Below, piece after piece: positions 1,673-47,377 of a stretch of 64,000 nt of DNA. Position 1 is the stretch's first letter. The number at the start of each line of letters is the position of its first letter. The translations under genes were made by a program, and so were the position numbers. The notes under the pieces are model-generated. The model saw nothing but the letters and a program-made list of their open reading frames with translations. It did not search any database and was not told where the DNA came from. The stretch comes from Patescibacteria group bacterium (GTDB lineage: Bacteria > Patescibacteriota > Minisyncoccia > Phycocordibacterales > JAGLPS01), in NCBI GenBank assembly GCA_038057845.1, contig JBBUCK010000041.1, positions 1,042 to 65,041 on the forward strand, read 5' to 3'.

Positions 1673-1738
1673 AGGACTGATTTACTTTGGGTTTTGTTTT
1701 TAAGCTTTAAAATTGTATAATTTGAGTGAATTTCCTTT

Positions 1739-3643
1739 ATGCACGATGAAAATAAAATCGTATATTTCGCCGAGACCGATTCTCGCGGAAAGAAGCAAAA
1801 ATTTGGCATAAAAACCAAAGACCGTTCCCGTCACGTCTATGTTATTGGAAAAACTGGAATGGGAAAATCAACCTTGCTTGAGAACATGGCTGTTCAAGAT
1901 ATTCAGAATGGCGAAGGTATGGCGTTTATTGACCCTCATGGCAAAACAGCTGAACTCCTCTTGGAATATGTGCCTGCATCTCGAATTCAAGATGTTATAT
2001 ATTTTGCCCCTTTTGATACTGACTTCCCTATTTCTTTTAATGTGATGGAAGATGTTGGAGCAGACAAACGCCATCTTGTTGCTAACGGTCTTATGAGCGC
2101 GTTTAAAAAAATCTGGGTGGATGCTTGGTCTGCCCGTATGGAATACATTTTGAATAATATTCTGCTCGCATTGCTCGAATATCCGGATTCAACACTTATC
2201 GGTGTCAACCGTATGCTTGCCGATAAGGATTATCGCAATAAGGTGGTTAACAATATTACCGACCCTTCCGTTAAAGCATTTTGGACTGATGAATTTGCCA
2301 AGTACGGTGACCGATACATGCAAGAAGCCGGTGCCGCCATTCAAAACAAGATTGGACAATTCATCGCGAACCCGCTTGTTCGAAATATCATCGGTCAACC
2401 GAAATCAACCTTTGATTTAAGAAAAGTTATAGACGAGCGAAAAATACTCATTATCAACCTCTCCAAAGGCCGTGTCGGGGAAGCAAATGCAAATCTTTTG
2501 GGAAGTATGTTGATTACCAAAATTTATCTCGGGGCAATGTCAAGAGCCGATACGAGCGAAAAGGAGCTGAATAAACTCCCGCCATTCTATCTTTTTGTTG
2601 ACGAGTTTCAATCTTTTGCCAATGAATCGTTTGCCGATATTCTTTCCGAGGCGCGGAAATATAAGCTCAATCTCACGATGGCGCATCAGTATATAGAGCA
2701 AATGTCCGAGGAGGTGCGCGCGGCTGTTTTTGGCAACGTTGGAACAATGATTATGTTTCGCGTTGGCGCGTATGACGCGGAAGTGCTGGAAAAGGAATTC
2801 GCTCCGGAGTTTACCGCCGAAGATCTGGTAAATTTGGGATTTACTCAAATTTATCTCAAACTTATGATTGATGGTGTCACATCTCATCCATTTTCCGCGA
2901 CATCGCTTCCTCCGATTGAAACTCCTACTATGTCTTCCAAAGATCAAATTATTGAATCTTCTCGAAAAATCTATGCTCGTTCACGCGCTGTTATTGAGGA
3001 ATATATCAGGGATTGGCATGCGCCCATCAAAAAAGAGGAGAAAAGGAGTAATGAGGAGCGGCCGTTTTCTTCACAGAAAGAGATTGTAAAAAACCATCCT
3101 AAGCCCTTTGTGCCGGCGACCCCTTTACCGACCACACAGAATCCTTTCAAGGCAATTGCTTTTGATGAAACAGGGAAGGCGGTGGTCGAAGTAGCGGTGA
3201 AAAAAGCCGCCGAAGGCCCGCATCTTGCGAGGCTCGCCTTCGGCGGCCCGCTTCGCCAGAGCGGTAGCGAGGCGAGCAAGCCTCCCGCAGAGGACGAGAC
3301 TCGCTTCAAGCAGCGCTCTTACGAGCGGGAAGAAAAACCAATTACTGCTCCTCAGGTCTCTCAAACACCAGTCTCTCTTAAAAATCTTAGAGTTGATGAT
3401 CCTAAGAAAAGGAGGGAACAAAAAGGTCCAAGTGAGAAAAATCTCTCGGAACTCAAAGCTGCTCTTGCAGATGTTTTACAATCACACGGTGGAAGTAAAA
3501 AAGAGGAGTCTCTAGAACCAAAGCAGGAAGTGAAAAAAGAAGAGCTTGTAGAAAAAAAGGAAACTTTAGTTTCAAATACTCTAAATAATCCTAAGGAAAT
3601 CTCCGAATCAACACTCAAAAAAATCTTAGAGGTTCCCAAGTAA
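1739..3643 (+). CDS. TraD/TraG/VirD4-like (TrwB/DUF87-type) coupling-protein ATPase with ~200-aa disordered K/E/P-rich C-terminal tail
   Basis: Walker A VIGKTGMGKST, FIDPHGK, Walker B LFVDEFQSF, HQY motif; C-terminal low-complexity region. Confidence 0.55.
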   Translation: MHDENKIVYFAETDSRGKKQKFGIKTKDRSRHVYVIGKTGMGKSTLLENMAVQDIQNGEGMAFIDPHGKTAELLLEYVPASRIQDVIYFAPFDTDFPISFNVMEDVGADKRHLVANGLMSAFKKIWVDAWSARMEYILNNILLALLEYPDSTLIGVNRMLADKDYRNKVVNNITDPSVKAFWTDEFAKYGDRYMQEAGAAIQNKIGQFIANPLVRNIIGQPKSTFDLRKVIDERKILIINLSKGRVGEANANLLGSMLITKIYLGAMSRADTSEKELNKLPPFYLFVDEFQSFANESFADILSEARKYKLNLTMAHQYIEQMSEEVRAAVFGNVGTMIMFRVGAYDAEVLEKEFAPEFTAEDLVNLGFTQIYLKLMIDGVTSHPFSATSLPPIETPTMSSKDQIIESSRKIYARSRAVIEEYIRDWHAPIKKEEKRSNEERPFSSQKEIVKNHPKPFVPATPLPTTQNPFKAIAFDETGKAVVEVAVKKAAEGPHLARLAFGGPLRQSGSEASKPPAEDETRFKQRSYEREEKPITAPQVSQTPVSLKNLRVDDPKKRREQKGPSEKNLSELKAALADVLQSHGGSKKEESLEPKQEVKKEELVEKKETLVSNTLNNPKEISESTLKKILEVPK

Positions 3644-3673
3644 AAATGTTACACGTAGATAAATATTTTTTAA

Positions 3674-5206
3674 ATGAGGTTTCTTAGTAAACTTTTTATT
3701 TCGACGAGCGAGTGGCGCCGTGGCCACGTTTTGATGCGGACATGGCACGCGAGTCGAAGTCTAAACAAAGGCTTAATGGCCTTTATATTTTTTGTTCCTG
3801 TAACTTTTTTCACAACCGTCTCTGCGGCGGTTGTTATCGACGAAATCATGTACGACCTTGACGGCTCGGATACAGATAGGGAATGGGTAGAAATTTTAAA
3901 TGATGGAAACGGGGCAATAGACCTTACCGGCTTCAAATTCGATGATGGAGCAACCTCAAAACATGGTCTGAATGCCCCACCAAAAAACGGCGGTCAAGGC
4001 TCTCTCGTGATTCCGGGTGGCTCATATGCCATCTTTGCGGATAATGCCGCAGTCTTTCTCTCCGAACATCCGGGCTACACGGGGACAGTCATTGATACAC
4101 TCGTTGATTTGGCCAACACAAGTGACACCGTCTCACTTATTGATAGTAATGATAACGTTCTCGAGACGGTAACTTATGACTCGACATGGGGAGCAAAAGA
4201 TGACGGCAATTCGCTCCAGAAGATTAACGGCTTATGGAAGAGCGCTCTTCCCACTCCAGGGACTGTCAGTGTCTCTCCGTTCGCACCAACCACCGACCCC
4301 TCTCCACAGGAGACTCCTCCTGCAAATACTTCAAGCACAACCAGCACCTCTTCGAGTAGCACAGGGAGCAGTTCATCATTTCCTGTAGAACCGCAGATTA
4401 TCGCTTCGGCGGGGGAGAAAAAACGAATTGCAACTGTTGGAGGAAACATTATATTTTCTGGAAAAGTATGGGGTCTTAAAAAAGAGCCGATTGAAAACGC
4501 CCGTATTTTATGGAATTTTGGCGATGGAAGCACGGCGGAAGGGAAAACAGTGTCTCATACGTACCGCTACCCTGGTATATACATCGTCACACTTAACGCT
4601 TCGTCAGGACAATATTCGGCTTCTGATCGAGTAACTGTTGAGGCCATTCCGGCGAATATAATCATTTCTTCGGTTGGAGATTCGCAGTCTTTGCTTGTTG
4701 AACTGCATAATCAATCACATTACGAACTCGACCTCTCTTTTTGGAGTATTCATGCTCCCGATGTTACATTCATTATTCCGGAGTATACATTTGTTGGAGC
4801 GGGAGCAAAAATTAAATTTGCAGGTGAAGTGACTGGTATCACTTCTAACACGTTGGCAGATGTCTTGCTTTATTATCCCAATGGCATGCCTGCATCGGCA
4901 TCTCTCGCCATTGTTTCTGTTCAAGAAGAAATAGTGCAAAAATCTTCACTCGCATCCTCTGTTAGAAAAGAGGAAACAAAGAAGGAAGAATACATTTTAC
5001 CTCCAAAATCTGCTAATATGGCGCCTAACGCTTTCGGGGTCCTTGGAACAACAAGCGAAATTTTGGCGGCAGCGGAAACAGCAAAAGGGAGCGCATTTTC
5101 ACCTTGGATTTCCGGTCTTCTGGCTCTTATCGGCATTCCTCTTATTTCACTTTTTTTCTTACCTAAAAAACAAAAAACGGAAGCGGATGAGATAGAAATT
5201 ATTTAG
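3674..5206 (+). CDS. cell-surface protein: signal peptide, lamin-tail domain (LTD), S/T-rich linker, PKD-like domain, C-terminal TM anchor (probable true start near 3776, MAFIFF...)
   Basis: EIMYDLDGSDTDREWVEILN is the LTD signature; NFGDGSTAEGKTVSHTYRYPGIYIVTLNASS is PKD-like; C-terminal PWISGLLALIGIPLISLFFLPKK. Confidence 0.6.
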   Translation: MRFLSKLFISTSEWRRGHVLMRTWHASRSLNKGLMAFIFFVPVTFFTTVSAAVVIDEIMYDLDGSDTDREWVEILNDGNGAIDLTGFKFDDGATSKHGLNAPPKNGGQGSLVIPGGSYAIFADNAAVFLSEHPGYTGTVIDTLVDLANTSDTVSLIDSNDNVLETVTYDSTWGAKDDGNSLQKINGLWKSALPTPGTVSVSPFAPTTDPSPQETPPANTSSTTSTSSSSTGSSSSFPVEPQIIASAGEKKRIATVGGNIIFSGKVWGLKKEPIENARILWNFGDGSTAEGKTVSHTYRYPGIYIVTLNASSGQYSASDRVTVEAIPANIIISSVGDSQSLLVELHNQSHYELDLSFWSIHAPDVTFIIPEYTFVGAGAKIKFAGEVTGITSNTLADVLLYYPNGMPASASLAIVSVQEEIVQKSSLASSVRKEETKKEEYILPPKSANMAPNAFGVLGTTSEILAAAETAKGSAFSPWISGLLALIGIPLISLFFLPKKQKTEADEIEII

Positions 5207-6597: not shown

Positions 6598-7748
6598 CAC
6601 CTAAAAAAATTCTCATTGCTACAGGAATATATCCACCCGATATAGGGGGACCTGCCACATATTCAAAACTACTTGCGGACGAATTGCCAAAACACGGCAT
6701 TGAAGTAATGGTACTTACATTTGGTGCAGTGCGGCATCTGCCGAAGGTAATACGACACCTTGCTTATTTTTTTAAAACGCTTTCGCAAGGCAGAGAGGTA
6801 GATATTATTTATGCCCAAGACCCGGTAAGCGTTGGTCTACCGGCTTTATGGGCCGCACGACTGCTTAGAAAACGTTTCCTTCTTCGTTTGGGAGGAGATT
6901 ATGCTTGGGAGCAGGGTGTTGCGCGATTTGGAGTTAAGGATACCCTCGACGAGTTTGTCAAAAAATATGATGCATATCCGTTGTCTGTGCGAATGTTAAA
7001 GAAGATACAAACCTATGTTGCGCAACATGCAGAAACAGTAATTGTTCCAAGTCGGTATCTTGCAAGTATTGTGCAGGTTTGGGGAAGGAAAATAAATGTA
7101 AAAGTAATACATAATGCTTTTTCTCTCAATTCAGTTTCTGACAGTAATACATACACGTCTTATACTTTGACTCTTGTTCCAGAGAGTAAAGACGAACTTC
7201 GTAAAAAACTTAATTTTCAAGGGAAAGTTATTCTTTCTGCGGGTCGATTCGTCCCTTGGAAAGGTTTTGATATGCTTATTGAGATTATGCCTGATTTACG
7301 CAGAGAGGTACCTGATGCCTTTTTATACATTGTCGGTGAGGGTCCTGAACAGCCATTTCTGAAGACTTTAGTAGAAAAACATAATGCTTCAGAATACATA
7401 CATTTTCTTGGCACTCTTCCGCGTATAACACTACTCCAATACATTAAAGCTTCTGACGTATTTGCACTTAATACTGGCTACGAAGGGCTTTCCCATCAGC
7501 TTATTGAAGCGATGTCATTACATACTCCTGTAGTTACAACCAACATCCCAGGAAATAAAGAATTGATAAGAGATGGGATATCAGGAATACTTCTTAGCTA
7601 TAATGACAAAAAAGCGTTTACTGATACTTTGATTCGTGTTCTTTCTGAATTTGATACATCCGAGATCGTTAATCAAGCATTCGAAAAATCCCAGACATTT
7701 ACTTATAGCCGTATGATAAATGAAACAATTGACGCATTAGGCATATGA
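6594..7748 (+). CDS. glycosyltransferase family 4
   Basis: GT4-like two-domain architecture, GxEG...EAM motif; ATGA start/stop overlap with upstream GT. Confidence 0.8.
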   Translation: MTPKKILIATGIYPPDIGGPATYSKLLADELPKHGIEVMVLTFGAVRHLPKVIRHLAYFFKTLSQGREVDIIYAQDPVSVGLPALWAARLLRKRFLLRLGGDYAWEQGVARFGVKDTLDEFVKKYDAYPLSVRMLKKIQTYVAQHAETVIVPSRYLASIVQVWGRKINVKVIHNAFSLNSVSDSNTYTSYTLTLVPESKDELRKKLNFQGKVILSAGRFVPWKGFDMLIEIMPDLRREVPDAFLYIVGEGPEQPFLKTLVEKHNASEYIHFLGTLPRITLLQYIKASDVFALNTGYEGLSHQLIEAMSLHTPVVTTNIPGNKELIRDGISGILLSYNDKKAFTDTLIRVLSEFDTSEIVNQAFEKSQTFTYSRMINETIDALGI

Positions 7749-8848
7749 ACATTATCTCAATAAGCACAGACAGAAATATATGGCAGGAGACAAGTGCAGT
7801 GCGCGCACGGATGATTGAATACGGACAGCTATTTGATTCATTGCATATTATTGTTTTTTCAAAAAAGGGACACGATTTGCAACTCGTTCAATTGTCCGAC
7901 AATGTGTGGGCGTACCCAACAAACTCCTTTAATCAATGGTTGTATATTTTCGATGCTATTCGTCTCGGCAAACAACTCTTTGCTACAAGCTACAAGCTAC
8001 AAGCTACAAGCTGGCTCGTAACTGCTCAAGATCCCTTTGAAACAGGTTTTTGCGCGTGGATACTATCGCGGCTAATCGGCAGTAAATTAAATATTCAGAT
8101 TCATACTGATTTTTTGAGTCCATACTTTGTTAAGGGAAATGTTTTAAACAGAATCCGAGTTTTTTTAGCAGACTTTCTTTTACCGAAAGCTGATGGAATT
8201 AGAGTGGTATCCGATCGTATAAAGTCCTCTCTGCAAGCTACAAGCTACAAGCTAAAAGCTTCCCCCATTGTTCTGCCGATTTTTGTCGATGTGTTAAGTA
8301 TTGAGAATACTCAAATCACATTAGATTTGAAGGAAAAATATTCTCAATTTTCGCACATAATTCTTATGGCGACTCGGTTTGCCAAAGAAAAAAACATTTC
8401 TCTCGCTATTGACGCCTTCATACAGGTACTAGAGAAGCTACCCCGCGCAGGTCTTATCATTGTTGGTTCTGGACCTGAATGGGATAATTTAAGGCTTAAA
8501 GTAAAAGCATATAAGTTGTCAGAGAGTATTATCTTTGAACCATGGATAGGTTTTGAAACATTGATTTCTTACTATAAAACAACCAATTTACTTTTAAATA
8601 CCTCTTTATATGAAGGATACGGCCTCATTTTTGCTGAAGCAGCCGCATGCAATACTCCAATTGTTTCAACCGATGTTGGCATTGCCTCCGAAGTGGGCGC
8701 TACTATAGCCGACCATTCTGCTTCAAGTGTTGCCCAAAAGATTCTTGATGTCTTGGGCAATCCCAATCCCAGTCGACTACTCTATATTATTTCCAAAGAA
8801 GAGTATCTTTTAGATTATAAAAGCGCTTTATTGGGATTAGCAAGATAA
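7745..8848 (+). CDS. glycosyltransferase family 4 carrying two internal heptanucleotide (GCTACAA)n microsatellites
   Basis: EGYGLIFAEAAACNTPIVSTDVG GT4 motif; repeats at 7982-8012 and 8233-8260. Confidence 0.7.
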   Translation: MNIISISTDRNIWQETSAVRARMIEYGQLFDSLHIIVFSKKGHDLQLVQLSDNVWAYPTNSFNQWLYIFDAIRLGKQLFATSYKLQATSWLVTAQDPFETGFCAWILSRLIGSKLNIQIHTDFLSPYFVKGNVLNRIRVFLADFLLPKADGIRVVSDRIKSSLQATSYKLKASPIVLPIFVDVLSIENTQITLDLKEKYSQFSHIILMATRFAKEKNISLAIDAFIQVLEKLPRAGLIIVGSGPEWDNLRLKVKAYKLSESIIFEPWIGFETLISYYKTTNLLLNTSLYEGYGLIFAEAAACNTPIVSTDVGIASEVGATIADHSASSVAQKILDVLGNPNPSRLLYIISKEEYLLDYKSALLGLAR

Positions 8849-30540: not shown

Positions 30541-30650
30541 AAAGTCTATAAAGTTCATAAAGTTTGTAAAGTCTATAAAGTCCATGAGAGTCTTAAAGTT
30601 CATAAAGTCGAAAGTCTATAAAGTCTTTATAAAACCGGAAAGCAATCTAG
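30541..30650. repeat. array of ~9 (C/T)ATAAAGTC-type short repeats
   Basis: aaagtctataaagttcataaagtttgtaaagtctataaagtcc...cataaagtcgaaagtctataaagtct. Confidence 0.7.
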
Positions 30651-30960
30651 AAATTTCAATGCATAAATTATAATATTTTTCGTATTGTTCTTTACTTATG
30701 TATTTAAGGTCTAAAGCTAGATATAACATTGACCTAATTTCTCCGCACGAACCTTTGGCAACAAATAAAAAATGTTTTAATTCCTTATCACCCCTTCTTT
30801 CAAAGCCCTCGGCAATATTATTCATTATCGATACGGATGCTCTTTGTATTTGATCCCTAAAACCAAAATCTTCACTGCCCTTAAATGTTTTATAAATAGA
30901 TAATGTTAATTCCATTGCTTTCTGCCAAGCTATAATATCTTCAAATTTTTCTATTTTCAT
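30616..30960 (-). CDS. four-helix-bundle protein (PF05635; '23S rRNA intervening-sequence protein'/Avd-like), copy A
   Basis: MKIEKFEDIIAW...IMNNIAEGFERRGDKE...KGSCGEIRSMLYLA; 86% identical to copy at 35728-36072. Confidence 0.8.
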   Translation of the reverse strand: MKIEKFEDIIAWQKAMELTLSIYKTFKGSEDFGFRDQIQRASVSIMNNIAEGFERRGDKELKHFLFVAKGSCGEIRSMLYLALDLKYISKEQYEKYYNLCIEISRLLSGFIKTL

Positions 30961-31003
30961 AAGACTTTTGACTTTAAAGACTTTACGGACATTTGACTTA
31001 TAG
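30961..31003. repeat. inverted-orientation GACTTT(A/T) repeat array upstream of 4HB copy A
   Basis: aagacttttgactttaaagactttacggacatttgactta. Confidence 0.65.
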
Positions 31004-31891
31004 TTTTATCCACTCTTTTGGCATAAGGTCCCTAATATCGTTTTTTGGAGCACCCTCAAACCATTTTTGTGGAGCGACCACAATCTTATCTTTTCGCGGA
31101 TTAAGCCACGCGCCCCACCAACTGAAGCTTGAATTGGCGATGATATGGTTTTTACATTGAGACATTAATATCATATCCTCATGATTTTTTTCCTTTCCGT
31201 TTCCTACCAGAGTGAAGGGATATTTAAGAGTTTTGAATGTTTCCGCAGCCCATTCATAATTGTCTGAGAAAATAAAAAAATGAGGAGATTTCACATGCTT
31301 GACTATGTGCTCTATAGCACGTTCGTAGTACTCGGGTGAGCATAAACTATGCCATGGTTTATGTTTTGACTCTGTATCGAAACGTGTATCGAAACGTCTT
31401 ACATGAATTGATACGGATTGCGTTTTTTGTATCTCCTCCTGTATTTTTTGGCTCTGCGGAGAGAGAGCAGCTTTCAGGGTTATTTCTTTACGCACATCAT
31501 CCTCTATGTTTTTAAAATACTTTTCTGTCTGCCAGAAACCGTCGAAATACGTTGTCCCTTTGCGTGAAAAAACATTTTGGTCGTACATAAAAGTTTTTTC
31601 CATGTAATACCAAAGACGCAGGATTTTATTAAACTTTAGGCGATGGTAAATAAAATTAAAGAATGTATTATGTTTGCGTAACCACACGAAACCAAACATG
31701 TCAGTTTCTTTTGCAATGTGCTCCTGTATATTGAATTTCGATAATTCGTAGGAGTCGGATTTGTAGTATGTATGGAAAGGAGTTACATCAAGTCGGAAGT
31801 TAGTTTTCGTGCTTACAGAGACTCCTCGCGCAAAAGCGTATTGGAATAGTTGATTGCCAAGACCGCCATTGAGTTTGACAATGATTGTCAT
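30998..31891 (-). CDS. GT11 alpha-1,2-fucosyltransferase
   Basis: KLNGGLGNQLFQYAF motif I; C-terminal IIANSSFSWWGAWLN. Confidence 0.8.
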   Translation of the reverse strand: MTIIVKLNGGLGNQLFQYAFARGVSVSTKTNFRLDVTPFHTYYKSDSYELSKFNIQEHIAKETDMFGFVWLRKHNTFFNFIYHRLKFNKILRLWYYMEKTFMYDQNVFSRKGTTYFDGFWQTEKYFKNIEDDVRKEITLKAALSPQSQKIQEEIQKTQSVSIHVRRFDTRFDTESKHKPWHSLCSPEYYERAIEHIVKHVKSPHFFIFSDNYEWAAETFKTLKYPFTLVGNGKEKNHEDMILMSQCKNHIIANSSFSWWGAWLNPRKDKIVVAPQKWFEGAPKNDIRDLMPKEWIKL

Positions 31892-34438: not shown

Positions 34439-35704
34439 TTATTCTATATCCCACTTAAGGCGCGGCCTTACTACACCTGGAATGCGTTGATTGAAATCCA
34501 TTTTCTTTGTGTGCTCTATATCCTCAACCACTTGAAAGGTGATGGCCTCGCGTTCATAAAGGTGTATTTTAAGAGGCATCATAGTTGAGATAGCGACGCC
34601 GACTATATACGTACCATCATTAAGAAGGTCTTTCGGTATCCATGCTGTTGTTTTATGTATTCCCACATTATCAAGCTTCTCATGAAAATCAGCGTGACTT
34701 ATGAAAGCGTACTCTTCTCTATTTGTGAAGACATGAATATTGGGAGTGGGGGAGAAGCTTTTTTGTAGAACTTCATACACAATTTCAACCCCAACTTCTT
34801 GATTTGAGTAGGCGTAGGGGGCAGACTTACCCTCTGTGTTAATGAGTCTCACTGAATTGAGGTGAACAATTTCGTTTCCAGGACGTTCCCGCTCTTTCCA
34901 AATCGTTTCTGTGTCGTTTGAATTTGTGCTATTGAGGTAGTAATTGACGACTTCCTCCGTCTTTCCAAACATTTCTACTTGCCCTTTTTTGAGCAAAATG
35001 GTTTTCGAACAAAGTCGCTGAATTGCTGCCATATTATGGCTCACGAAGAGAATTGTGCGTCCTTTCTTACTTGTGACCTCTTCCATTTTGCCGAGACATT
35101 TTTTTTGAAATTCTGCATCACCGACAGCGAGGACTTCATCAACAAGGAGAATGTCTGGTTCCATATGAGCAGCCACAGAGAAAGCAAGGCGGACATACAT
35201 ACCACTCGAGTAATATTTCACAGGGGTGTCAAGGAATTTTTCAATACCAGAAAAGGCGACAATTTCGTCAAATTTCTTCACAATTTCTTTTTTGGTCATA
35301 CCGAGAATAGCACCGTTAAGAAAGATATTTTCTCGTCCGGTAAGCTCAGGGTGAAAGCCGGTGCCGATTTCAAGAAGCGAGGCGACTTTTCCGTGCATAA
35401 CGATTTCACCCTCGGTCGGTGGAGTGATGCCTGTGAGAATTTTCAAAAGTGTGGATTTTCCGGCCCCATTTCTCCCAATAATACCGATTATTTCGCCCTG
35501 TTTAATTTGAAGGTTAATGTTCTTGAGTGCCCAAAATTCTTCTTTTTTTTCAAGTCCTACCACCTGTTTCACTTTATTTTTTGCAAACCGAAAAGGATTT
35601 TTAAAAACATTTGTAAGCACATCACGCAACGCAATATATCCACCTCGTCCCCGTGTGATATTATATTTTTTCCCTACGTTTTTTATTTCAATGATAGAGT
35701 CCAT
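34439..35704 (-). CDS. wzt: ABC transporter ATP-binding protein, Wzt/TagH/KpsT-type with C-terminal extension (putative glycan-binding domain)
   Basis: GIIGRNGAGKST Walker A, LSGGQ-like YSSGM, ILLVDEVLAVGD; 421 aa (~170-aa C-terminal extra domain). Confidence 0.8.
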   Translation of the reverse strand: MDSIIEIKNVGKKYNITRGRGGYIALRDVLTNVFKNPFRFAKNKVKQVVGLEKKEEFWALKNINLQIKQGEIIGIIGRNGAGKSTLLKILTGITPPTEGEIVMHGKVASLLEIGTGFHPELTGRENIFLNGAILGMTKKEIVKKFDEIVAFSGIEKFLDTPVKYYSSGMYVRLAFSVAAHMEPDILLVDEVLAVGDAEFQKKCLGKMEEVTSKKGRTILFVSHNMAAIQRLCSKTILLKKGQVEMFGKTEEVVNYYLNSTNSNDTETIWKERERPGNEIVHLNSVRLINTEGKSAPYAYSNQEVGVEIVYEVLQKSFSPTPNIHVFTNREEYAFISHADFHEKLDNVGIHKTTAWIPKDLLNDGTYIVGVAISTMMPLKIHLYEREAITFQVVEDIEHTKKMDFNQRIPGVVRPRLKWDIE

Positions 35705-35742
35705 AAAGTTTGTAAAGTCATTAAAGTCTATAAAGTCTTGAT
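35701..35742. repeat. ATAAAGTC-type repeat array downstream of 4HB copy B
   Basis: ccataaagtttgtaaagtcattaaagtctataaagtcttg. Confidence 0.65.
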
Positions 35743-36072
35743 AAATCCCGAAAGCAACCTTGAGATTTCAACAGATAAATTATAATACTTTTCGTATTCT
35801 TCTTTATTTATATATTCAAGACTTAGAGCCAAATATAACATTGACCTAACTTCTCCACATGACCCCTTCGCAATAAATAAGAAATGTTTGAATTCTTTAT
35901 CACCTCTCCTTTCAAACCCCTCGGCAATATTATTCATTATTGACACAGACGCTCTTTGTATTTGGTCTCTAAATCCAAAATCTTTACTACTTATGAACGC
36001 TTTATAAATAAGTAGCGTTAATTCTTTTGCCTTTTCCCATGCTATGATATCTTCAAATTTTTCTATTTTCAT
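35728..36072 (-). CDS. four-helix-bundle protein (PF05635/Avd-like), copy B, located between wzm and wzt
   Basis: 98/114 aa identical to copy A; ~60 bp of 3' flank and 5' flank also conserved between copies. Confidence 0.8.
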   Translation of the reverse strand: MKIEKFEDIIAWEKAKELTLLIYKAFISSKDFGFRDQIQRASVSIMNNIAEGFERRGDKEFKHFLFIAKGSCGEVRSMLYLALSLEYINKEEYEKYYNLSVEISRLLSGFIKTL

Positions 36073-36117
36073 ATAACTTTTGACTTTACGGACTTTATAG
36101 ACCTTTGACTTTTTACT
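36073..36117. repeat. inverted-orientation GACTTT(A/T) repeat array upstream of 4HB copy B
   Basis: ataacttttgactttacggactttatagacctttgacttttt. Confidence 0.65.
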
Positions 36118-40845: not shown

Positions 40846-43062
40846 TTATTCGCTATTTTTACTCTCGTGTTCCAAATCTGCCATTACCATAAGCTTTGCC
40901 AATTCCTTAAATGTGACGTTTGGCTTCCAGCCGAGTTTATTTTTTGCTTTTGAGTAGTCTCCTAAAAGTATATCAACTTCTGCTGGTCTAAAATATTTCA
41001 GGTCAACTTCAATAATAGTTTTACCTGTCTTTCTATCAATACCTTTTTCATTGAGACCTTTGCCTTTCCAGACAATGTCCATATCAAGATATTTTGCCGT
41101 TTCCTCAATAAATTCCCGAACAGTGTGCGTTTCGTTTGTCGCGAGAATGAAATCATCGGGGTTTTTGTGCTGGAGAATAAGCCACATACCATAGACAAAA
41201 TCTTTCGCGTAACCCCAGTCTCGCTTCGCGTCCAAATTACCCAAGTAGAGTTTCTTCTCCTTGCCTAATTGTATACGTGAAAGCCCTCGAGTTATTTTTC
41301 GTGTAACGAATGTTTCGCCGCGGCGGGGGGAATTATGCACGCGTGCTTTTCCAATTCCACAATGGAATTCTCCCGAAGAAGTTTCTAAATCGTAAAACCA
41401 ACCATCGTACTTCTGGATTTCCAAAATTTTTTTCACTTCAGAAGGCTCTTTCTTGAGATGGTGCGTGTCGCATGCAAAACCACCATGTTGGATTTTTCTT
41501 ATAAATGTACGCGAGATCCCCGTTATGTGCGCCATTTCTCTTTGTGATACTCCAGTGCCCACGAGTTGTCTTATAGATTGTTCCTTGAATACATTATTTG
41601 TGGTGGTGAGAATATTCAGTGAATAAAATATTCTGCCATCGTCTTTTGTCTCTACAGTGAGGTTAATATTTTGTTGTGTGGTTTTGTCGATAAGATACCA
41701 CAATCCCATGGCTAATGTGGGGGAATTCGTCTTGAAGTTCTTGAATTCATAAGTGCAGGGGTTTGCTTTCAAGCCGTCACATACATTATAGCCGCGCAAG
41801 AACGCAAGCATGACATGCGAAGGGGCGTTCAAAATAACTTTTGGCACGCGCTTAGTCTTATCTTTGTTATAGATATCGATACTGCGTAGCCAATTATTGC
41901 CACCAGCTAGTTGTAGCTGTCCTACGATATTTTTCTGATTAAAACCTGAACGGGAAGGATAGTATAGTGTGTGACCGCCAGTAACCTTTTTCCATAACAT
42001 ATCGAAATGTTGTCGTAATAGTGGATCCGAGTTTGTGAACTTAGCATGGACACCGATGCCTTTGGTGGCGTATGTGGCGGAACCGTCACCTACCATCATA
42101 CCCATAAGCTCCGCCTCTTCTTCGGAATTGGGTAATTGGCGACTTTGCGTATCTGGTTTAGGAAGATCAATGGAGTCAATACAGTCTCCGATTGCAATGT
42201 TCCCAGTTTCTTTTTCTTCTCCCCCTTTCATAAATACAACATGACTGGAAGTTGCCATGAATGCACCAGATCGTGCATTGATAAAGCGCGGATGTTTATT
42301 CTCCCTTTCAGTATCGTGCGGATAGGCGGAAGCAAATGTCACATCAACCCATCCCTGTTTGCTCCATACTTGCACCCCCGAAACTTCTTTTGATTGATAA
42401 TGCTTAAGAGATTCGTTGAATGTTACTATTTCTCGAATTGGTTTTATGTTAAATTCATTCGAACCGGTTTCTTTGCAAAACATAGGCATAAAAGATGACA
42501 CTGTCTCGTGATTGAATAAAATTCCGTTTGAAGCAAACATCCCATACGCTTCTCGATAGTTTTTTGTTATCCAATAGGCGTAAAGTTTAGCCACGCCGTA
42601 CGGTGAGCGAGGGTGGAAAGGAGTTTTTTCTGTTAACGGTAATTCAACCGTCTTACCGAACATCTCAGAGGATGAGGCTTGGTAAAACTTAGTTTTAGTT
42701 AGTCCGGTTTCGCGCATTGCGTCCAGAAGGCGAAGTGTACCAAGTCCTGTGACATCCCCAGTGTATTCCGGCATATCAAAGCTAACACGTACATGGCTCT
42801 GCGCACCTAAATGATAGATTTCATTAGGTTTAATTTCACTTAAAATACGGTTAAGATTACTCCCATCAGACAGATCTCCATAATGGAGAAATAATTTGAT
42901 GTTGTTTATATGGGGATCTTTATAGAGATGGTCAATCCTATCAGTATTAAACGTACTTGCTCGTCTGATAATGCCATGAACTTCATATCCTTTTTCAAGA
43001 AGGAGTTCAGCCAAATAAGACCCGTCCTGTCCGGTGATGCCTGTAATAAGAGCTTTTTTCAT
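40846..43062 (-). CDS. gmd: GDP-mannose 4,6-dehydratase interrupted by a ~391-aa intein (precursor 738 aa)
   Basis: N-extein [22 protein letters not shown]...ILFNHE and C-extein [16 protein letters not shown] match the conserved Gmd NHESPRRG region split by an insertion. Confidence 0.85.
41332..42504 (-). mobile_element. intein with LAGLIDADG homing-endonuclease domain inserted in gmd
   Basis: block B ATSSHVV (TxxH); two LAGLIDADG motifs [10 protein letters not shown] and [12 protein letters not shown]; block [25 protein letters not shown] ending HN + Ser(+1); N-terminal boundary uncertain (residue after NHE is Thr; a Cys lies 9 aa downstream). Confidence 0.7.
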
Positions 43063-43170
43063 AAAGTTTATAAAGTCGAAAGTCTATAAAGTCCTTAAAG
43101 CCATAAAGTTCCTGAAGCTCAAAAGCGGTAGTGGTGTACTTTACGAACTTTTAACTTTCAGACTTTTGAC
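43063..43170. repeat. bipartite inverted array: ATAAAGT(C/T) repeats (43063-43115) then GACTTT-type repeats (43135-43170) around a short central spacer, immediately upstream of gmd
   Basis: cataaagtttataaagtcgaaagtctataaagtccttaaagccataaagttcc...ctttacgaacttttaactttcagacttttgacta. Confidence 0.65.
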
Positions 43171-43770: not shown

Positions 43771-45936
43771 ATGACTAATATGTATGCAATTTTAAAATAT
43801 ATTATTTACACGGGTCTTTTTGCCGCTCTTTTTCTACCGTTTTATATTGATGGAACAATGTTCTTTCCTTTTATAACAGGAAAAGGCTTTGCTTTTAGAA
43901 TTATTGTTGAAATTATTACTTTCGCATGGATTATCCTCTTTCTACAAGACAAAACATATCGACCAAAATTCTCATGGATAGTTGTCACGTTTGCCGCATT
44001 CGCTCTTTCCTTAGGTGTTTCCACTATTCTTTCTGAAAATCCTTACAAAAGTTTTTGGAGCAATTTCGAAAGAATGGAAGGGTTTATAACCGTTCTTCAT
44101 CTTTTCGCGTATTTTCTTGTAGCAGGTGTGATGTTGTCGACTCAAAAACTTTGGACGCGGTTTTTCAATACGTCTCTCATTGCAAGTTTTGGTATTGCTC
44201 TATACAGCTTCGCTCAACTTGCTGGAAAAATTCCCATTAATCAGGGGGGGGTGCGTGTGGATGCGACATTCGGTAATGCAACATATCTGGCGATTTATCT
44301 TGTTTTTCATATTTTTCTCGCACTCTTCCTCCTTCTTCGTAGAGATAATAAGCTCTATCGATTAGCCTATGGTTCGTTAGCTTTTGTCCATATGTTTCTT
44401 CTCTATGAGACACAAACTCGAGGTGCGATACTGGGTTTTTTGGGAGGATTTTTTATTACCGCAATACTCATTGCTCTGACGGAAAAAGAAAATACACATC
44501 TTCGTAAGATATCCTGGGGAATTATCGGCGGTATCATTCTTCTTATCATCGGATTTATTTCGGTCAAAGAAACTTCATTTGTTCGAAATAATTCCACACT
44601 TGTGCGTTTTGCGGAAATTTCATTAACAAAAGACCAAGCGAGGACCTATGTATGGCCAATGGCCATTAAAGGGTTTGTGGAACGGCCGGTCTTCGGATGG
44701 GGACAGGAAAGTTTTAATTACGTCTTCAATAAATACTACGACCCGCGTATGTACAATCATGAGCAATGGTTTGACCGTACGCACAATGTTATTCTCGACT
44801 GGCTTGTCGCGGGCGGAATATTGGGTCTCTCGCTCTATCTTCTCCTATTTATTTTCGGTTTAAGATATCTATGGAAAACGGACAATCTCTCTTCCGTGGA
44901 AAAAAGTGTTCTCACCGGTCTTTTTGCTGCCTATTTTTTCCACAATCTTTTCGTGTTTGATAATCTGATAAGTTATCTTCTCTTCTTTTCTCTCCTTGCC
45001 TATATCCATTCATCTTCCGGAAAAGAGTGGAAAATTTCCACGTTTGACATAAGTTTACGCGTTCAACAAATTGTTTCCGCCTTGGTTATTGCCGCGTTTC
45101 TGTTTATTTTATACACAGCGAACATTATTCCGATAAAGGCGAACAAAAAACTTATTGAAGCGATTTCTCCCCGGCAAGACGGAAATATTTCCCTTAATCT
45201 CGAAGCCTTTAAGAAGGCGCTCTCTTATCATTCTTTTGGCGATGCCGAAACGCGAGAACAACTTGCTCAGATAACAAATAATATGGTAAAAGCTCCTTCT
45301 GTTTCAAATGAATTGAAAATTCAGTTTGCTGAACTTTCCATGTCGGAATTGCAAAAACAACTTACGTTAACGCCCGAAGATACTAGATATCAAATATTCG
45401 CCGCTGTTTCCGCAAATGGGTTCGGTAATTACGAGCAAGGTCTCATCTACGCCCTTCAAACGGTAAAAAGCTCTCCGAGAAAACAGACGGCTTACTTTGA
45501 GTTGGGAACCTCATATATAGGAAAAAGGGATTATGAAAACGCGCTTGAGACGTTTAAAAAAGCATACGAATTAGAACCAAGCTTTCAAGACGCGAAAATC
45601 GCCTATACCGTAGGGGCGATATATGCTGGTAAAAAAGATCTCGAGAGGGAGCTCCTCTCTACGCTTCCGGAACAGATTGTATACTTTGACGACCGTCTTT
45701 TTCGGGCCTATGTAGCGAGAGGAGAATACTCGCGTGTTCTTGAAATTCTTGCCAAAAGAATCGAAATCGAACCGGGAAATTCAAGTCATCGCCTTTCCCT
45801 CGCGGCAGTATATCTTGAACTTGGAAAGCGCTCGCAGGCAGTAAAAGAGATTGAGGAAATTATTAAAATCAATCCGGAATTCAAAGAACAAGGGGAGTTC
45901 TATATAAAGGAAATACGGGCGGGGAGAAATCCTTAG
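43771..45936 (+). CDS. O-antigen ligase/polymerase (Wzy_C/RfaL-like, ~10 TM) fused to C-terminal TPR repeats
   Basis: polytopic N-terminal ~400 aa with large periplasmic loop; C-terminal TPR-like repeats (…YENALETFKKAYELEP…). Confidence 0.7.
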   Translation: MTNMYAILKYIIYTGLFAALFLPFYIDGTMFFPFITGKGFAFRIIVEIITFAWIILFLQDKTYRPKFSWIVVTFAAFALSLGVSTILSENPYKSFWSNFERMEGFITVLHLFAYFLVAGVMLSTQKLWTRFFNTSLIASFGIALYSFAQLAGKIPINQGGVRVDATFGNATYLAIYLVFHIFLALFLLLRRDNKLYRLAYGSLAFVHMFLLYETQTRGAILGFLGGFFITAILIALTEKENTHLRKISWGIIGGIILLIIGFISVKETSFVRNNSTLVRFAEISLTKDQARTYVWPMAIKGFVERPVFGWGQESFNYVFNKYYDPRMYNHEQWFDRTHNVILDWLVAGGILGLSLYLLLFIFGLRYLWKTDNLSSVEKSVLTGLFAAYFFHNLFVFDNLISYLLFFSLLAYIHSSSGKEWKISTFDISLRVQQIVSALVIAAFLFILYTANIIPIKANKKLIEAISPRQDGNISLNLEAFKKALSYHSFGDAETREQLAQITNNMVKAPSVSNELKIQFAELSMSELQKQLTLTPEDTRYQIFAAVSANGFGNYEQGLIYALQTVKSSPRKQTAYFELGTSYIGKRDYENALETFKKAYELEPSFQDAKIAYTVGAIYAGKKDLERELLSTLPEQIVYFDDRLFRAYVARGEYSRVLEILAKRIEIEPGNSSHRLSLAAVYLELGKRSQAVKEIEEIIKINPEFKEQGEFYIKEIRAGRNP

Positions 45937-45945
45937 AGAAGTTTT

Positions 45946-46105
45946 TAGCTTTTAGGGATTAGCTTATAGGGGAAGGTTGTAGTTTTTAGCTTATAGCTTG
46001 TAGAAAGATAGAAAGATAGAAAGAGAAGATTCTCCCGTCCCGAATTCAATGATTCCTAGAATTTTTCCTCCTAAAAGCTAACAGCTATAGGCTATAAGCT
46101 ACGCA
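45946..46105. repeat. inverted arrays of TAGCTT(A/T)TAGG motifs flanking an (AGAAAGAT)n-containing spacer
   Basis: gtttttagcttttagggattagcttataggg...gtttttagcttatagcttgtag | agaaagatagaaagatagaaagag... | cctaaaagctaacagctataggctataagctac. Confidence 0.55.
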
Positions 46106-46108
46106 GAG

Positions 46109-46137
46109 TTGCATTTTTTAGTGATTCATGCTATATT
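46109..46137 (+). promoter_or_regulatory. near-consensus sigma70-type promoter TTGCAT-17-TATATT
   Basis: ttgcat (46109-46114), 17-nt spacer, tatatt (46132-46137). Confidence 0.45.
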
Positions 46138-46144
46138 ATCCACG

Positions 46145-46219
46145 TGTGAGTGCATTAAGCACTAGCGACCAAATAAGAATGTCTGCGTAAGCCCCCTCCA
46201 AAAGAGGGGGTTTGCGTTT
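46145..46219 (+). ncRNA. candidate ~75-nt small RNA: 5' hairpin (AGUGC-AUUAA-GCACU), single-stranded middle, intrinsic terminator
   Basis: promoter immediately upstream; terminator CCCCCTC-caaaa-GAGGGGG + TTTGCGTTTG at 46191-46219. Confidence 0.35.
46191..46219 (+). terminator. rho-independent terminator hairpin
   Basis: 7-bp GC stem, 5-nt loop, U-rich tail. Confidence 0.6.
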
Positions 46220-46327: not shown

Positions 46328-47377
46328 GTGGATGTGACCCCTATAGAGATTTCCGAAAACACGCCCCTTAAACTTCTTAATACATTTAAGACGGGTGGCA
46401 ACGCTTGTTATTTTGTTGATGTTTCAACAATTAAACAGTTAATACAGGCAGTTTCTTTTGCACAAAAAAGAAGTTTGCCAATTTTTATCCTAGGTGAAGG
46501 TTCTAATATTCTTATTTCAGATGAAGGTTTTGATGGTCTTGTTATACGTATGAAGATTTCCGGTATTACATTCCAAAATGAAACAGAAGAAAAAATCGAG
46601 GTGAGGGTTGGGGCAGGAGAGCATTGGGATTTTTTTGTGGAGCACATGGTTTCAAAAGGTTTGTATGGAATCGAAAATCTTTCTGGTATTCCTGGAAGTG
46701 TTGGTGCAGCACCAGTTCAGAACATTGGTGCCTATGGTGTTGAAGCAAAAGATTCTATTCTCTTTGTTGATGTGTTTGATATAGAAGATACAAAAATAAA
46801 AAAGATTTCTTCTCCTGATTGTAATTTTTCTTATCGTGATAGTATTTTTAAAACCGAAAAAGGTAAAAAATATATTATTGTATCTGTTACGTTCCTCCTA
46901 AAAAAACACAAAAACCTTTCTACGGATTATCGAGACCTTGCCCTTTATCTTAAAGAAAGAGATATAACACATCCTTCCTTGCAGGACATACGGAATGCAA
47001 TTCTTGAAATCCGTAAGCAAAAACTTCCTTCTCTTGCCGATTACGGCACAGCTGGGTCATTTTTTAAAAATATTATTATTCAAGATAGAGAATTTAAGTT
47101 ACTGAAAGAAAGATTTCCCAAAATACCTTCGTTTCTCGCAGAAGTAGGAAAAGTAAAGATTCCTACTGCATGGGTATTTGATAATATTTGTAATTTAAAA
47201 GGCTTACGAGAAGGCAATGTGGGTGTATATGAAAGACAAGCACTTGTTCTTGTGACGTTTGGGAATGCTACTTCTCTTGAAGTAAAAAACTTATCTGATT
47301 TTATTATTGAAGAAGTAAAAAAGAAAACGGGTTTACTTCTCGAGCGCGAGGTGCAACTCGTTGGAATGTTTGATTAA
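46328..47377 (+). CDS. murB: UDP-N-acetylenolpyruvoylglucosamine reductase
   Basis: LKLLNTFKTGGNACYFVDV...IFILGEGSNILISDEGFDGLVI FAD-binding domain; C-terminal MurB domain. Confidence 0.8.
   Translation: MDVTPIEISENTPLKLLNTFKTGGNACYFVDVSTIKQLIQAVSFAQKRSLPIFILGEGSNILISDEGFDGLVIRMKISGITFQNETEEKIEVRVGAGEHWDFFVEHMVSKGLYGIENLSGIPGSVGAAPVQNIGAYGVEAKDSILFVDVFDIEDTKIKKISSPDCNFSYRDSIFKTEKGKKYIIVSVTFLLKKHKNLSTDYRDLALYLKERDITHPSLQDIRNAILEIRKQKLPSLADYGTAGSFFKNIIIQDREFKLLKERFPKIPSFLAEVGKVKIPTAWVFDNICNLKGLREGNVGVYERQALVLVTFGNATSLEVKNLSDFIIEEVKKKTGLLLEREVQLVGMFD

Follow-up and report, generated by a model that had tools for sequence, protein, structure and literature searches.

Position-conserved heptanucleotide arrays in GT4 glycosyltransferase genes of Patescibacteria as candidate low-copy frameshift hot spots

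Introduction

The locus described here raises the question of whether two short heptanucleotide tracts inside a glycosyltransferase (GT) gene could serve to switch that gene off and on. The gene, of the GT4 family, lies in 64,000 nucleotides (nt) of DNA from a Patescibacteria group bacterium (assembly GCA_038057845.1, contig JBBUCK010000041.1, positions 1,042 to 65,041 of the forward strand; hereafter the window, with position 1 as its first letter). An initial annotation, made from the letters alone, had read the tracts as the classic slipped-strand phase-variation design of surface-glycan genes. Patescibacteria are ultra-small bacteria that mostly live as episymbionts and have few regulators, and little is known of surface-glycan variation toward their hosts or phages. 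A full-text literature search found no paper describing such repeats in the candidate phyla radiation (CPR)/Patescibacteria. The two tracts were found to belong to a family-wide set of up to four arrays per gene that keep their positions and their 7-nt period while the repeated unit turns over.

Results

The window gene and its two tracts

The host gene (7745..8848, + strand) was taken from the open reading frame (ORF) list and encodes 367 amino acids (aa). Its product was 100% identical to an NCBI protein from a metagenome-assembled genome (MAG) labelled 'Patescibacteria group bacterium' and matched Pfam Glycos_transf_1 (PF00534) at 1.2e-23 over residues 204-340. An AlphaFold model computed from an alignment with 25 homologues (mean predicted local distance difference test, pLDDT, 90.9) gave a GT-B fold with strands and helices alternating in both halves; the best Foldseek matches of the model were MshA and BshA (E about 1e-17, template modelling score 0.65-0.7). 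Residues E290 and E298 of an EX7E motif in the C-domain were invariant in the 25 aligned homologues. By its Glycos_transf_1 domain, its two Rossmann domains in a GT-B arrangement and its EX7E motif, the protein is a GT4 retaining glycosyltransferase. NCBIfam matches all lay far under their cut-offs (best BshA, 56 bits against 273.7) and gave no named orthologous group and no donor or acceptor.

Both tracts were confirmed by Tandem Repeats Finder (TRF) and by the ORF list to lie in frame within this coding sequence, as initially annotated. The first, (GCTACAA)4.4 at 7982..8012 (+ strand; TRF score 62, 100% matches), encodes ATSYKLQATS at residues 80-89 in the context FATSYKLQATSW. The second, CAA(GCTACAA)2 GCTAAAA GCT at 8234..8260 (+ strand; TRF 3.9 copies, 95% matches, one mismatch), encodes QATSYKLKAS at residues 164-173. 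The latter peptide had been given correctly before; the former had been given as ATSYKLQATSYKLQ, and the true peptide does not hold two full heptapeptides. Lag-7 autocorrelation in the gene peaked at 24/24, against 12-14 at the other lags from 4 to 11. With up to 2 mismatches allowed, the 14-mer GCTACAAGCTACAA matched 10 times in the window against 0.45 expected, a count reached in 0 of 100 shuffles.

In the model, helix 64-81 ends within the first tract, which continues through the loop preceding strand 90-94, the lowest-confidence block (pLDDT 64); helix 157-165 likewise ends within the second tract, which continues through the loop preceding residue 175. This agrees with the annotated placement of both in loops of the N-terminal domain. 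The invariant motifs QDPFE and HTDF lie between them. Units were added or removed in silico: one unit gained or lost at the first tract left a product of 100 or 89 aa, and at the second a product of 188 or 167 aa. The annotation's claim that a single unit shifts the frame was thereby borne out, all four products lacking the Glycos_transf_1 domain and with it the catalytic C-domain. The spacing of 252 bp (84 codons) given for the tracts was not recovered; distances in register are 255 nt (85 codons) and 234 nt, both in frame, whereas those of 248 and 241 nt shift the frame.

Arrays at four conserved positions in homologous genes

Homologous loci were drawn from GTDB genomes (80) and metagenomes (80) and supplemented with individual contigs; the choice of the best 80 favours intact genes. 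Arrays were counted by TRF in 146 non-redundant homologues from Patescibacteria MAGs, with codon-shuffled genes as controls. The homologues held 84 arrays of period 7 and 23 of period 14, against 0.05 and 0.85 in the controls, and periods 5, 6 and 8 were essentially absent. At least one array was present in 58 of the 146 genes. A chance origin of the window tracts was rejected both on this census and on the 14-mer count given above. The arrays fell at four positions, with about 5 strays among about 110: residues ~40-49 (site A, 15 arrays), 80-89 (site B, 23 arrays of period 7 or 14), 160-169 (site C, 32) and 250-259 (site D, 35). The two window tracts are the arrays of sites B and C. When placed on the window-gene model, all four sites correspond to helix ends and the loops running from them to the next strand. 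Array length was tightly distributed (median 31 nt, 10th-90th percentile 26-35 nt), many arrays were 100% pure, and loops with arrays were of the same length as those of array-free homologues.

The remaining two sites of the window gene hold no detectable array. At site A (7859..7891, + strand; residues 39-49, SKKGHDLQLVQ) a lag-7 signal was absent, and at site D (8489..8527, + strand; residues 249-261, LRLKVKAYKLSES) the lag-7 score was under threshold. The site-D peptide is KxKxYKL-like, similar to what (AAAAGCT)n arrays encode in relatives; by this comparison of peptides, site D may be a decayed array.

Units at the same site differed between genes by 2.5-3.0 of 7 positions, against 3.27 for random heptamers. 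SYKLKA-like peptides were found at B and C in homologues at about 45-55% identity and recurred at D. In other lineages, among the 120 homologues listed, the same sites carried the unrelated peptides TTYNLQPTTY, TRYSLLATR, SNVKCQMSNV, FNFQLSTFN, DSRFVIHDS and IENWKLEIGN, each of them a three-frame read-out of its own perfect heptamer DNA repeat. Comparison of orthologues, which the initial annotation had proposed, thus showed the sites of the heptamer arrays to be shared and their units to differ. At the level of sequence comparison, the conserved feature was shown to be tandem repetition with a 7-nt period at a given position, not a DNA sequence and not a peptide. Repetition itself appears to be maintained, since heptamer arrays with differing units at the same site are hard to explain otherwise. 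A unit preferred by each genome, as hinted at by four loci (L008, L006, L015 and L105) and the window, was considered and rejected: unit sharing was 10.7% within loci and 8.4% between loci, and 402 of 2000 permutations reached this value.

In several relatives a heptamer array is interrupted by a GC-rich hairpin or a G/C-rich insert of 15-35 nt and continues beyond it (L006 at site A, L009 and L170 at site B, L010, L031 and L101 at site C; examples gtccgccaggcggcgg, ATCCGCCAGCTGGCGGAT and tctccctatgggagatctcccgaagggaga). Such inserts resemble a further type of small element with a preference for arrays.

Distribution of arrays among genes and spacers

Array density was 0.68 per kb in the family, 0.153 per kb in other GT-B ORFs of the same clusters, 0.011 per kb in non-GT ORFs and 0.118 per kb outside long ORFs. 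The family density was thus about 60 times that of neighbouring non-GT4 genes. Paralogous GT4 genes carried their arrays at positions equivalent to B, C and D. No true period-7 array was present in a sample of 110 non-GT4 neighbour genes, which included 16 epimerases/dehydratases, 7 UDP-glucose dehydrogenases and 8 methyltransferases, several of them Rossmann folds. Because these glycan-pathway neighbours are array-free, neither loop tolerance nor pathway dispensability alone explains the distribution.

Arrays are not strictly limited to glycan clusters, since two related genomes (L033:4941-4972 and L013, about 3660-3700) also have them where rplV ends and between rplV and rpsC, with CTAAAAA/CTAAAAG units in one genome and AACTTTC-like units in the other. 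A (CTCAAAA)6.9 array was observed at L160:2850-2896 between two GT ORFs; in three other loci (L094, L129 and L066) these two ORFs are joined into a single one of about 730-746 aa. Further fused GTs (730-816 aa; L015, L033, L069 and L075) also hold arrays, in the linkers between their domains.

Unit turnover and probable recombination

The window gene was compared with an allele from Logan, L085, at 94% nt identity, and with the nearest relative, L086, at 81% aa identity. The three site-B arrays are of equal length and differ in unit: GCTACAA repeated 4.4 times in the window, three ACTACAA followed by one GCTACAA in the Logan allele, and three ACTACCC in the relative. When the Logan allele was aligned to the window gene (L085:64-1167 against 7745-8848), the initial 336 nt were about 88% identical and the other 768 nt were 100% identical; both sequences come from the same aquifer. 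Such a mosaic points to a recent recombination event inside the gene, unless the contig is chimeric. No length difference was found between the two alleles. In the metagenome scan no relative of the window gene exceeded 52% identity, so the strain-level view of this gene comes through the Logan allele.

Similar changes were seen elsewhere in the family. GCTACCA and ACTACCA arrays alternate inside clusters of 90% identity. Over about 2 kb, two loci (L018 and L105) share 99-100% identity, interrupted by three replaced patches of about 75-130 nt; an array lies at the centre of each (those of site B, of site C and of the next GT gene). At site C, CTAAAAA units stand against CTATCGA units and the stop-avoiding CTATAAA unit is kept. 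In (AGCTAAA)n arrays a single unit always carries a TAA-to-TAT, TAC or TTA variant exactly where TAA would fall in frame, and the ORF stays open. Since an in-phase change in every unit cannot have arisen by independent substitutions, the units are likely to turn over by slippage or conversion. With every 7-nt step the frame is lost, and turnover at constant length would therefore require null intermediates or wholesale replacement by recombination. In an independent assembly (L081) of the L006 strain, a gap of Ns at about 2740-2890 runs from just before array A to just after array B.

Several candidate patterns were examined and set aside. In the search for copy-number variants within 90% protein clusters, the length differences were all due to the choice of start codon. 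A role of arrays as borders of exchanged modules was not supported: in both the window/L085 and the L018/L105 comparison the borders lay outside arrays and the arrays inside the patches. Adenine-specific mutagenesis of the kind caused by diversity-generating retroelements was set aside, the changes being concerted across units and not restricted to A. Logan contigs that break just after array C were not counted, as this may be an artefact of k=31.

Natural null alleles

Truncated proteins were searched for with the N-terminal 170 residues, ending at site C, as query. Two null alleles derived from arrays were found, both in site-C arrays of relatives of the window gene. In one, from a distant relative (L167), exactly 7 nt are missing from the site-C array: the SL and LPIF anchors are 32 nt apart, against 39 nt in the family, and the remaining gene is intact in another frame. 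In the other (L172), site C reads AAAAGCT AAAAGCT GAAAGCT GAAAGCG: the unit with TAT was replaced by a copy of its neighbour, which gives an in-frame TGA, while the rest of the gene is intact and neighbouring genes are of normal length under code 11. Together with the concerted unit change, these two sequences show that array turnover occurs in nature. An array-derived null allele of the window gene itself was not found. An apparent excess of truncated proteins ending at site C was discarded, the query itself ending there and biasing the set; truncations at sites C/D in three loci (L168, L169 and L171) had no array at the breakpoint and were not counted, and the frameshift of L170 is a 1-nt indel and not a unit change.

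Other features of the window

Two further heptamer-like arrays lie in a spacer (45937-46110) between a gene for a Wzy_C/TPR membrane protein (43771-45936) and murB (46328-47377). The first (45977..46004, - strand; three overlapping matches with 2 mismatches; reverse complement TCTACAAGCTATAAGCTAAAAACTACAA) is putatively related to the GT tracts, and the second (CTAAAAGCTAACAGCTATAGGCTATAAGCTAC, 46071..46102, + strand, sense orientation) was called by TRF with period 7, 4.4 copies and 79% matches. The same spacer holds a (AGAAAGAT)3 run. The idea that the inverted arrays at 45.98-46.10 kb give rise to an antisense or hairpin RNA found no support: their fold was no better than that of shuffles (z = -0.99), and neither an Rfam match nor a promoter-like site was found. 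About 120 nt ahead of murB, a terminator-like hairpin (CCCCTCCAAAAGAGGGGG, 46193-46210) runs into a T-rich tail, which hints that the spacer yields a short transcript or leader.

A 9-bp unit, (C/T)ATAAAGT(C/T), is repeated in three further arrays (30541-30626, 35694-35738 and 43060-43118). Two of these lie where two paralogous ORFs of PF05635, '23S rRNA intervening sequence protein' (30619-31005 and 35731-36117, minus strand), have their 3' ends, and closely precede an asparagine-synthase-like gene and a Wzt ABC ATPase gene; the remaining one is at the 5' end of ORF 40849-43083. These could be a small cassette or an operator-like iteron set. The product of ORF 40849-43083 (minus strand, 745 aa) matched the Pfam GDP-mannose 4,6-dehydratase model in two stretches, which hints at a large insertion in the enzyme, either an intein or an added domain. 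At 1435-1662, between ORFs 299-1477 and 1730-3640, a 98-bp unit containing GC-rich, hairpin-like sequence is present as a tandem duplicate (81-83% identity).

Discussion

Proposed frameshift hot spots of low copy number

The window tracts are read here as two members, those of sites B and C, of a set of as many as four frameshift hot spots that are prone to slippage and conserved in position; such a set would be a variant of the contingency locus with few copies. We give this reading a roughly even chance of being correct. Replication slippage would add or remove 7-nt units, shift the frame and truncate the enzyme ahead of its catalytic domain. The frame would be restored by back-slippage or by recombinational replacement of the array, and repeated off/on cycles would homogenise the units, which is the cause proposed for concerted unit change at constant length. 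Helix-to-strand loops of Rossmann folds lie opposite the catalytic cleft; the array-bearing loops would likewise face away from the active site, and any repeat-encoded peptide would be tolerated there. The arrays would be localised, reversible loss-of-function hot spots for individual glycan-building GT4 enzymes, and would represent a form of contingency locus with a low copy number and probably a low rate. The slippage mechanism, its reversibility and any adaptive value are what we infer from these patterns, and it is the strong restriction to GT4 genes that would point to adaptive switching. More tentatively, and against our leaning, the four sites may be a 'designated' set of heptanucleotide frameshift or recombination hot spots built into the GT-B fold of Paceibacteria-type Patescibacteria GT4s, the sites persisting over phylum-scale divergence while the unit turns over, and off/on cycles together with array-centred patch recombination maintaining the arrays. 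The arrays could also serve some other purpose that depends only on 7-nt periodicity.

The window tracts share with known contingency loci a non-triplet unit within an ORF and the loss, in silico, of the full-length product on a one-unit change; they depart from them in length, with 4.4 and 3.9 copies against 8-38 units. The initial view of a classic phase-variation design thus holds for a non-triplet simple sequence repeat (SSR) in a glycan gene and fails on copy number, when compared with Haemophilus influenzae. Several further observations count against frameshift switching. Family arrays, with a median of 31 nt or ~4-5 copies, are far under experimentally phase-variable SSRs. Their length is nearly invariant, and longer arrays are rare though tolerated (one array of 59 nt in L101; hairpin insertions in some alleles). 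No copy-number difference was found in near-identical pairs or in 90% clusters, few of the pairs being non-identical and most being 100% duplicates. At the consensus level, out-of-frame arrays numbered 0 of about 250 in 167 loci, a sample biased to intact genes, and the array-derived null alleles are only two, both from the targeted search for truncated proteins. Heptamer arrays are also present in some intergenic spacers, including rplV-rpsC, where a frameshift is irrelevant. Finally, the array of one pair of divergent orthologues (L003/L125) diverges by 5% against 36% outside it, which is not predicted by pure drift and slippage.

Alternative explanations

The best-surviving alternative, which is nevertheless judged rather unlikely, is a non-adaptive by-product: slippage or duplication biased toward heptamers would let arrays pile up in unconstrained segments of 30-35 nt wherever gene loss is tolerated, with no role as a switch. 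It accommodates the arrays in intergenic spacers, in inter-domain linkers (counted in the density outside long ORFs) and in the ribosomal-protein operon spacer, a copy number that stays at 4-5 with no apparent selection for longer, more mutable tracts, and consensus alleles that are almost all in frame. It is at odds with the near absence of arrays from glycan-pathway neighbours, which are presumably equally dispensable. The four loops make up about 12% of the gene, so that the density calculated for GT4 loops per unconstrained base is about 50 times that outside long ORFs. Frameshift load should also purge or interrupt the arrays, yet many are 100% pure.

The 7-nt periodicity might instead be read as DNA or RNA, by a binding protein or an antisense RNA, or act as a recombination or break site, with the frameshift a mere side effect. 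Such a cis-acting nucleic-acid element, which we regard as improbable, would be consistent with a fixed-position periodicity of tightly limited length, with arrays in non-coding spacers beside genes, with the far better conservation of the L003/L125 array than of the rest of its gene, with recombination patches centred on arrays and with a manual alignment in which the intergenic array at 45977-46004 was complementary to the first tract at 25 of 28 positions. Units, however, are near random between lineages and between the sites of one gene, which does not fit a conserved sequence-specific reader, and the permutation result on unit sharing speaks against a genome-specific partner RNA or protein. 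The poor folding of the inverted intergenic arrays and the missing Rfam match are likewise unfavourable, and patch borders lay outside the arrays in the two mosaics examined.

Selection for amino-acid sequence, in which the inserts would be peptide repeats or linkers, is very improbable. The recurrence of SYKLKA-like peptides at B, C and D in many homologues is in its favour, but the unrelated units and peptides at the same sites in other lineages, all read-outs of perfect heptamer repeats, rule out conservation at the peptide level, and exact identity of units, third codon positions included, cannot stem from peptide selection. Site B is moreover the model's lowest-confidence segment. The arrays were also not assigned to the protein tandem repeat class, because the DNA period of 7 nt is not a multiple of 3, and the peptide period would be 7 aa, of which each array holds only ~1.5 periods. 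A programmed in-frame deletion of 78-85 codons between the tracts acting as direct repeats, suggested by the initial annotation, is scarcely believable: B and C share a unit in the window genome and the 255-nt and 234-nt registers are in frame, but the units of B and C differ in most relatives, the invariant QDPFE and HTDF motifs would be irreversibly lost and no deleted allele was present among 167 loci and the truncated proteins examined, so that a B-to-C deletion is incidental and not a conserved design.

Meaning

If the more tentative reading of a 'designated' set is correct, no contingency-locus system would have been described for the CPR before the one formed by these arrays, and its architecture of several short arrays at conserved structural loops would be one not seen elsewhere. 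If they are switches, each GT4 gene of a glycan cluster could be toggled independently, and combinatorial glycan diversity would be obtained from a tiny genome. Whatever their function, the arrays are an unusually clean natural case of selection or drive on repetition itself, with position and period kept at 40-50% protein identity and the sequence nearly randomised. They may also fragment CPR MAG assemblies and gene calls; one scaffold gap, that of L081, coincides with arrays.

Comparison with known systems

The closest known systems are the tetranucleotide contingency loci in lipooligosaccharide/lipopolysaccharide glycosyltransferase genes of H. influenzae and Neisseria, such as lgtC (GACA), lic2A (CAAT) and lex2A (PMC2651432). 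As in those loci, a non-triplet SSR lies in the reading frame of a glycan GT, a one-unit change shifts the frame, genomes are small with few regulators, and several GT genes of a cluster each carry a tract of their own. Tetranucleotide loci of H. influenzae are listed with 8-38 copies and hmw heptanucleotide tracts with 13-38 (PMC2651432). The Patescibacteria arrays differ in their copy number of 4-5 and nearly invariant length, in a unit that is always 7 nt, in the presence of up to four arrays per gene in place of one near the 5' end, and in loop positions that are conserved at 40-50% aa identity while the unit turns over; they are known here from sequence. It is the fixed 7-nt period, the several short arrays per gene and the loop positions conserved across deep divergence that would be new with respect to known contingency loci.

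Heptanucleotide SSRs of H. influenzae include (TGAAAGA)13-38 in the hmw1A/hmw2A promoters, (AACAACC)1-7 upstream of a TonB receptor gene and (AATTTTG)14 inside hmw1A (PMC2651432). They share the 7-nt unit and, in one case, a position inside an ORF with an observed frameshift; unlike the arrays described here, they are long, strain-variable, mostly in promoters and not position-conserved across a protein family.

Two further systems are alike in part. In Escherichia coli, (CTGG)3 of lacI is a short-repeat frameshift hot spot: as proposed here, a tandem repeat of low copy number raises local frameshifting by slippage without regulatory machinery. The lacI hot spot arose by accident in a single gene, whereas the repeats described here return at the same four sites in more than a hundred genes and with many different units. 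Rickettsia palindromic elements are dispersed selfish palindromes of 100-150 nt that sit in frame within coding genes and lengthen the host protein. The arrays resemble them as nucleotide-level repeats in frame in structurally tolerant parts of a protein. A selfish element of this kind was rejected, however, as the arrays are direct repeats and not palindromes, leave loops no longer than those of array-free homologues, carry units unrelated between sites and form no single dispersed sequence family.

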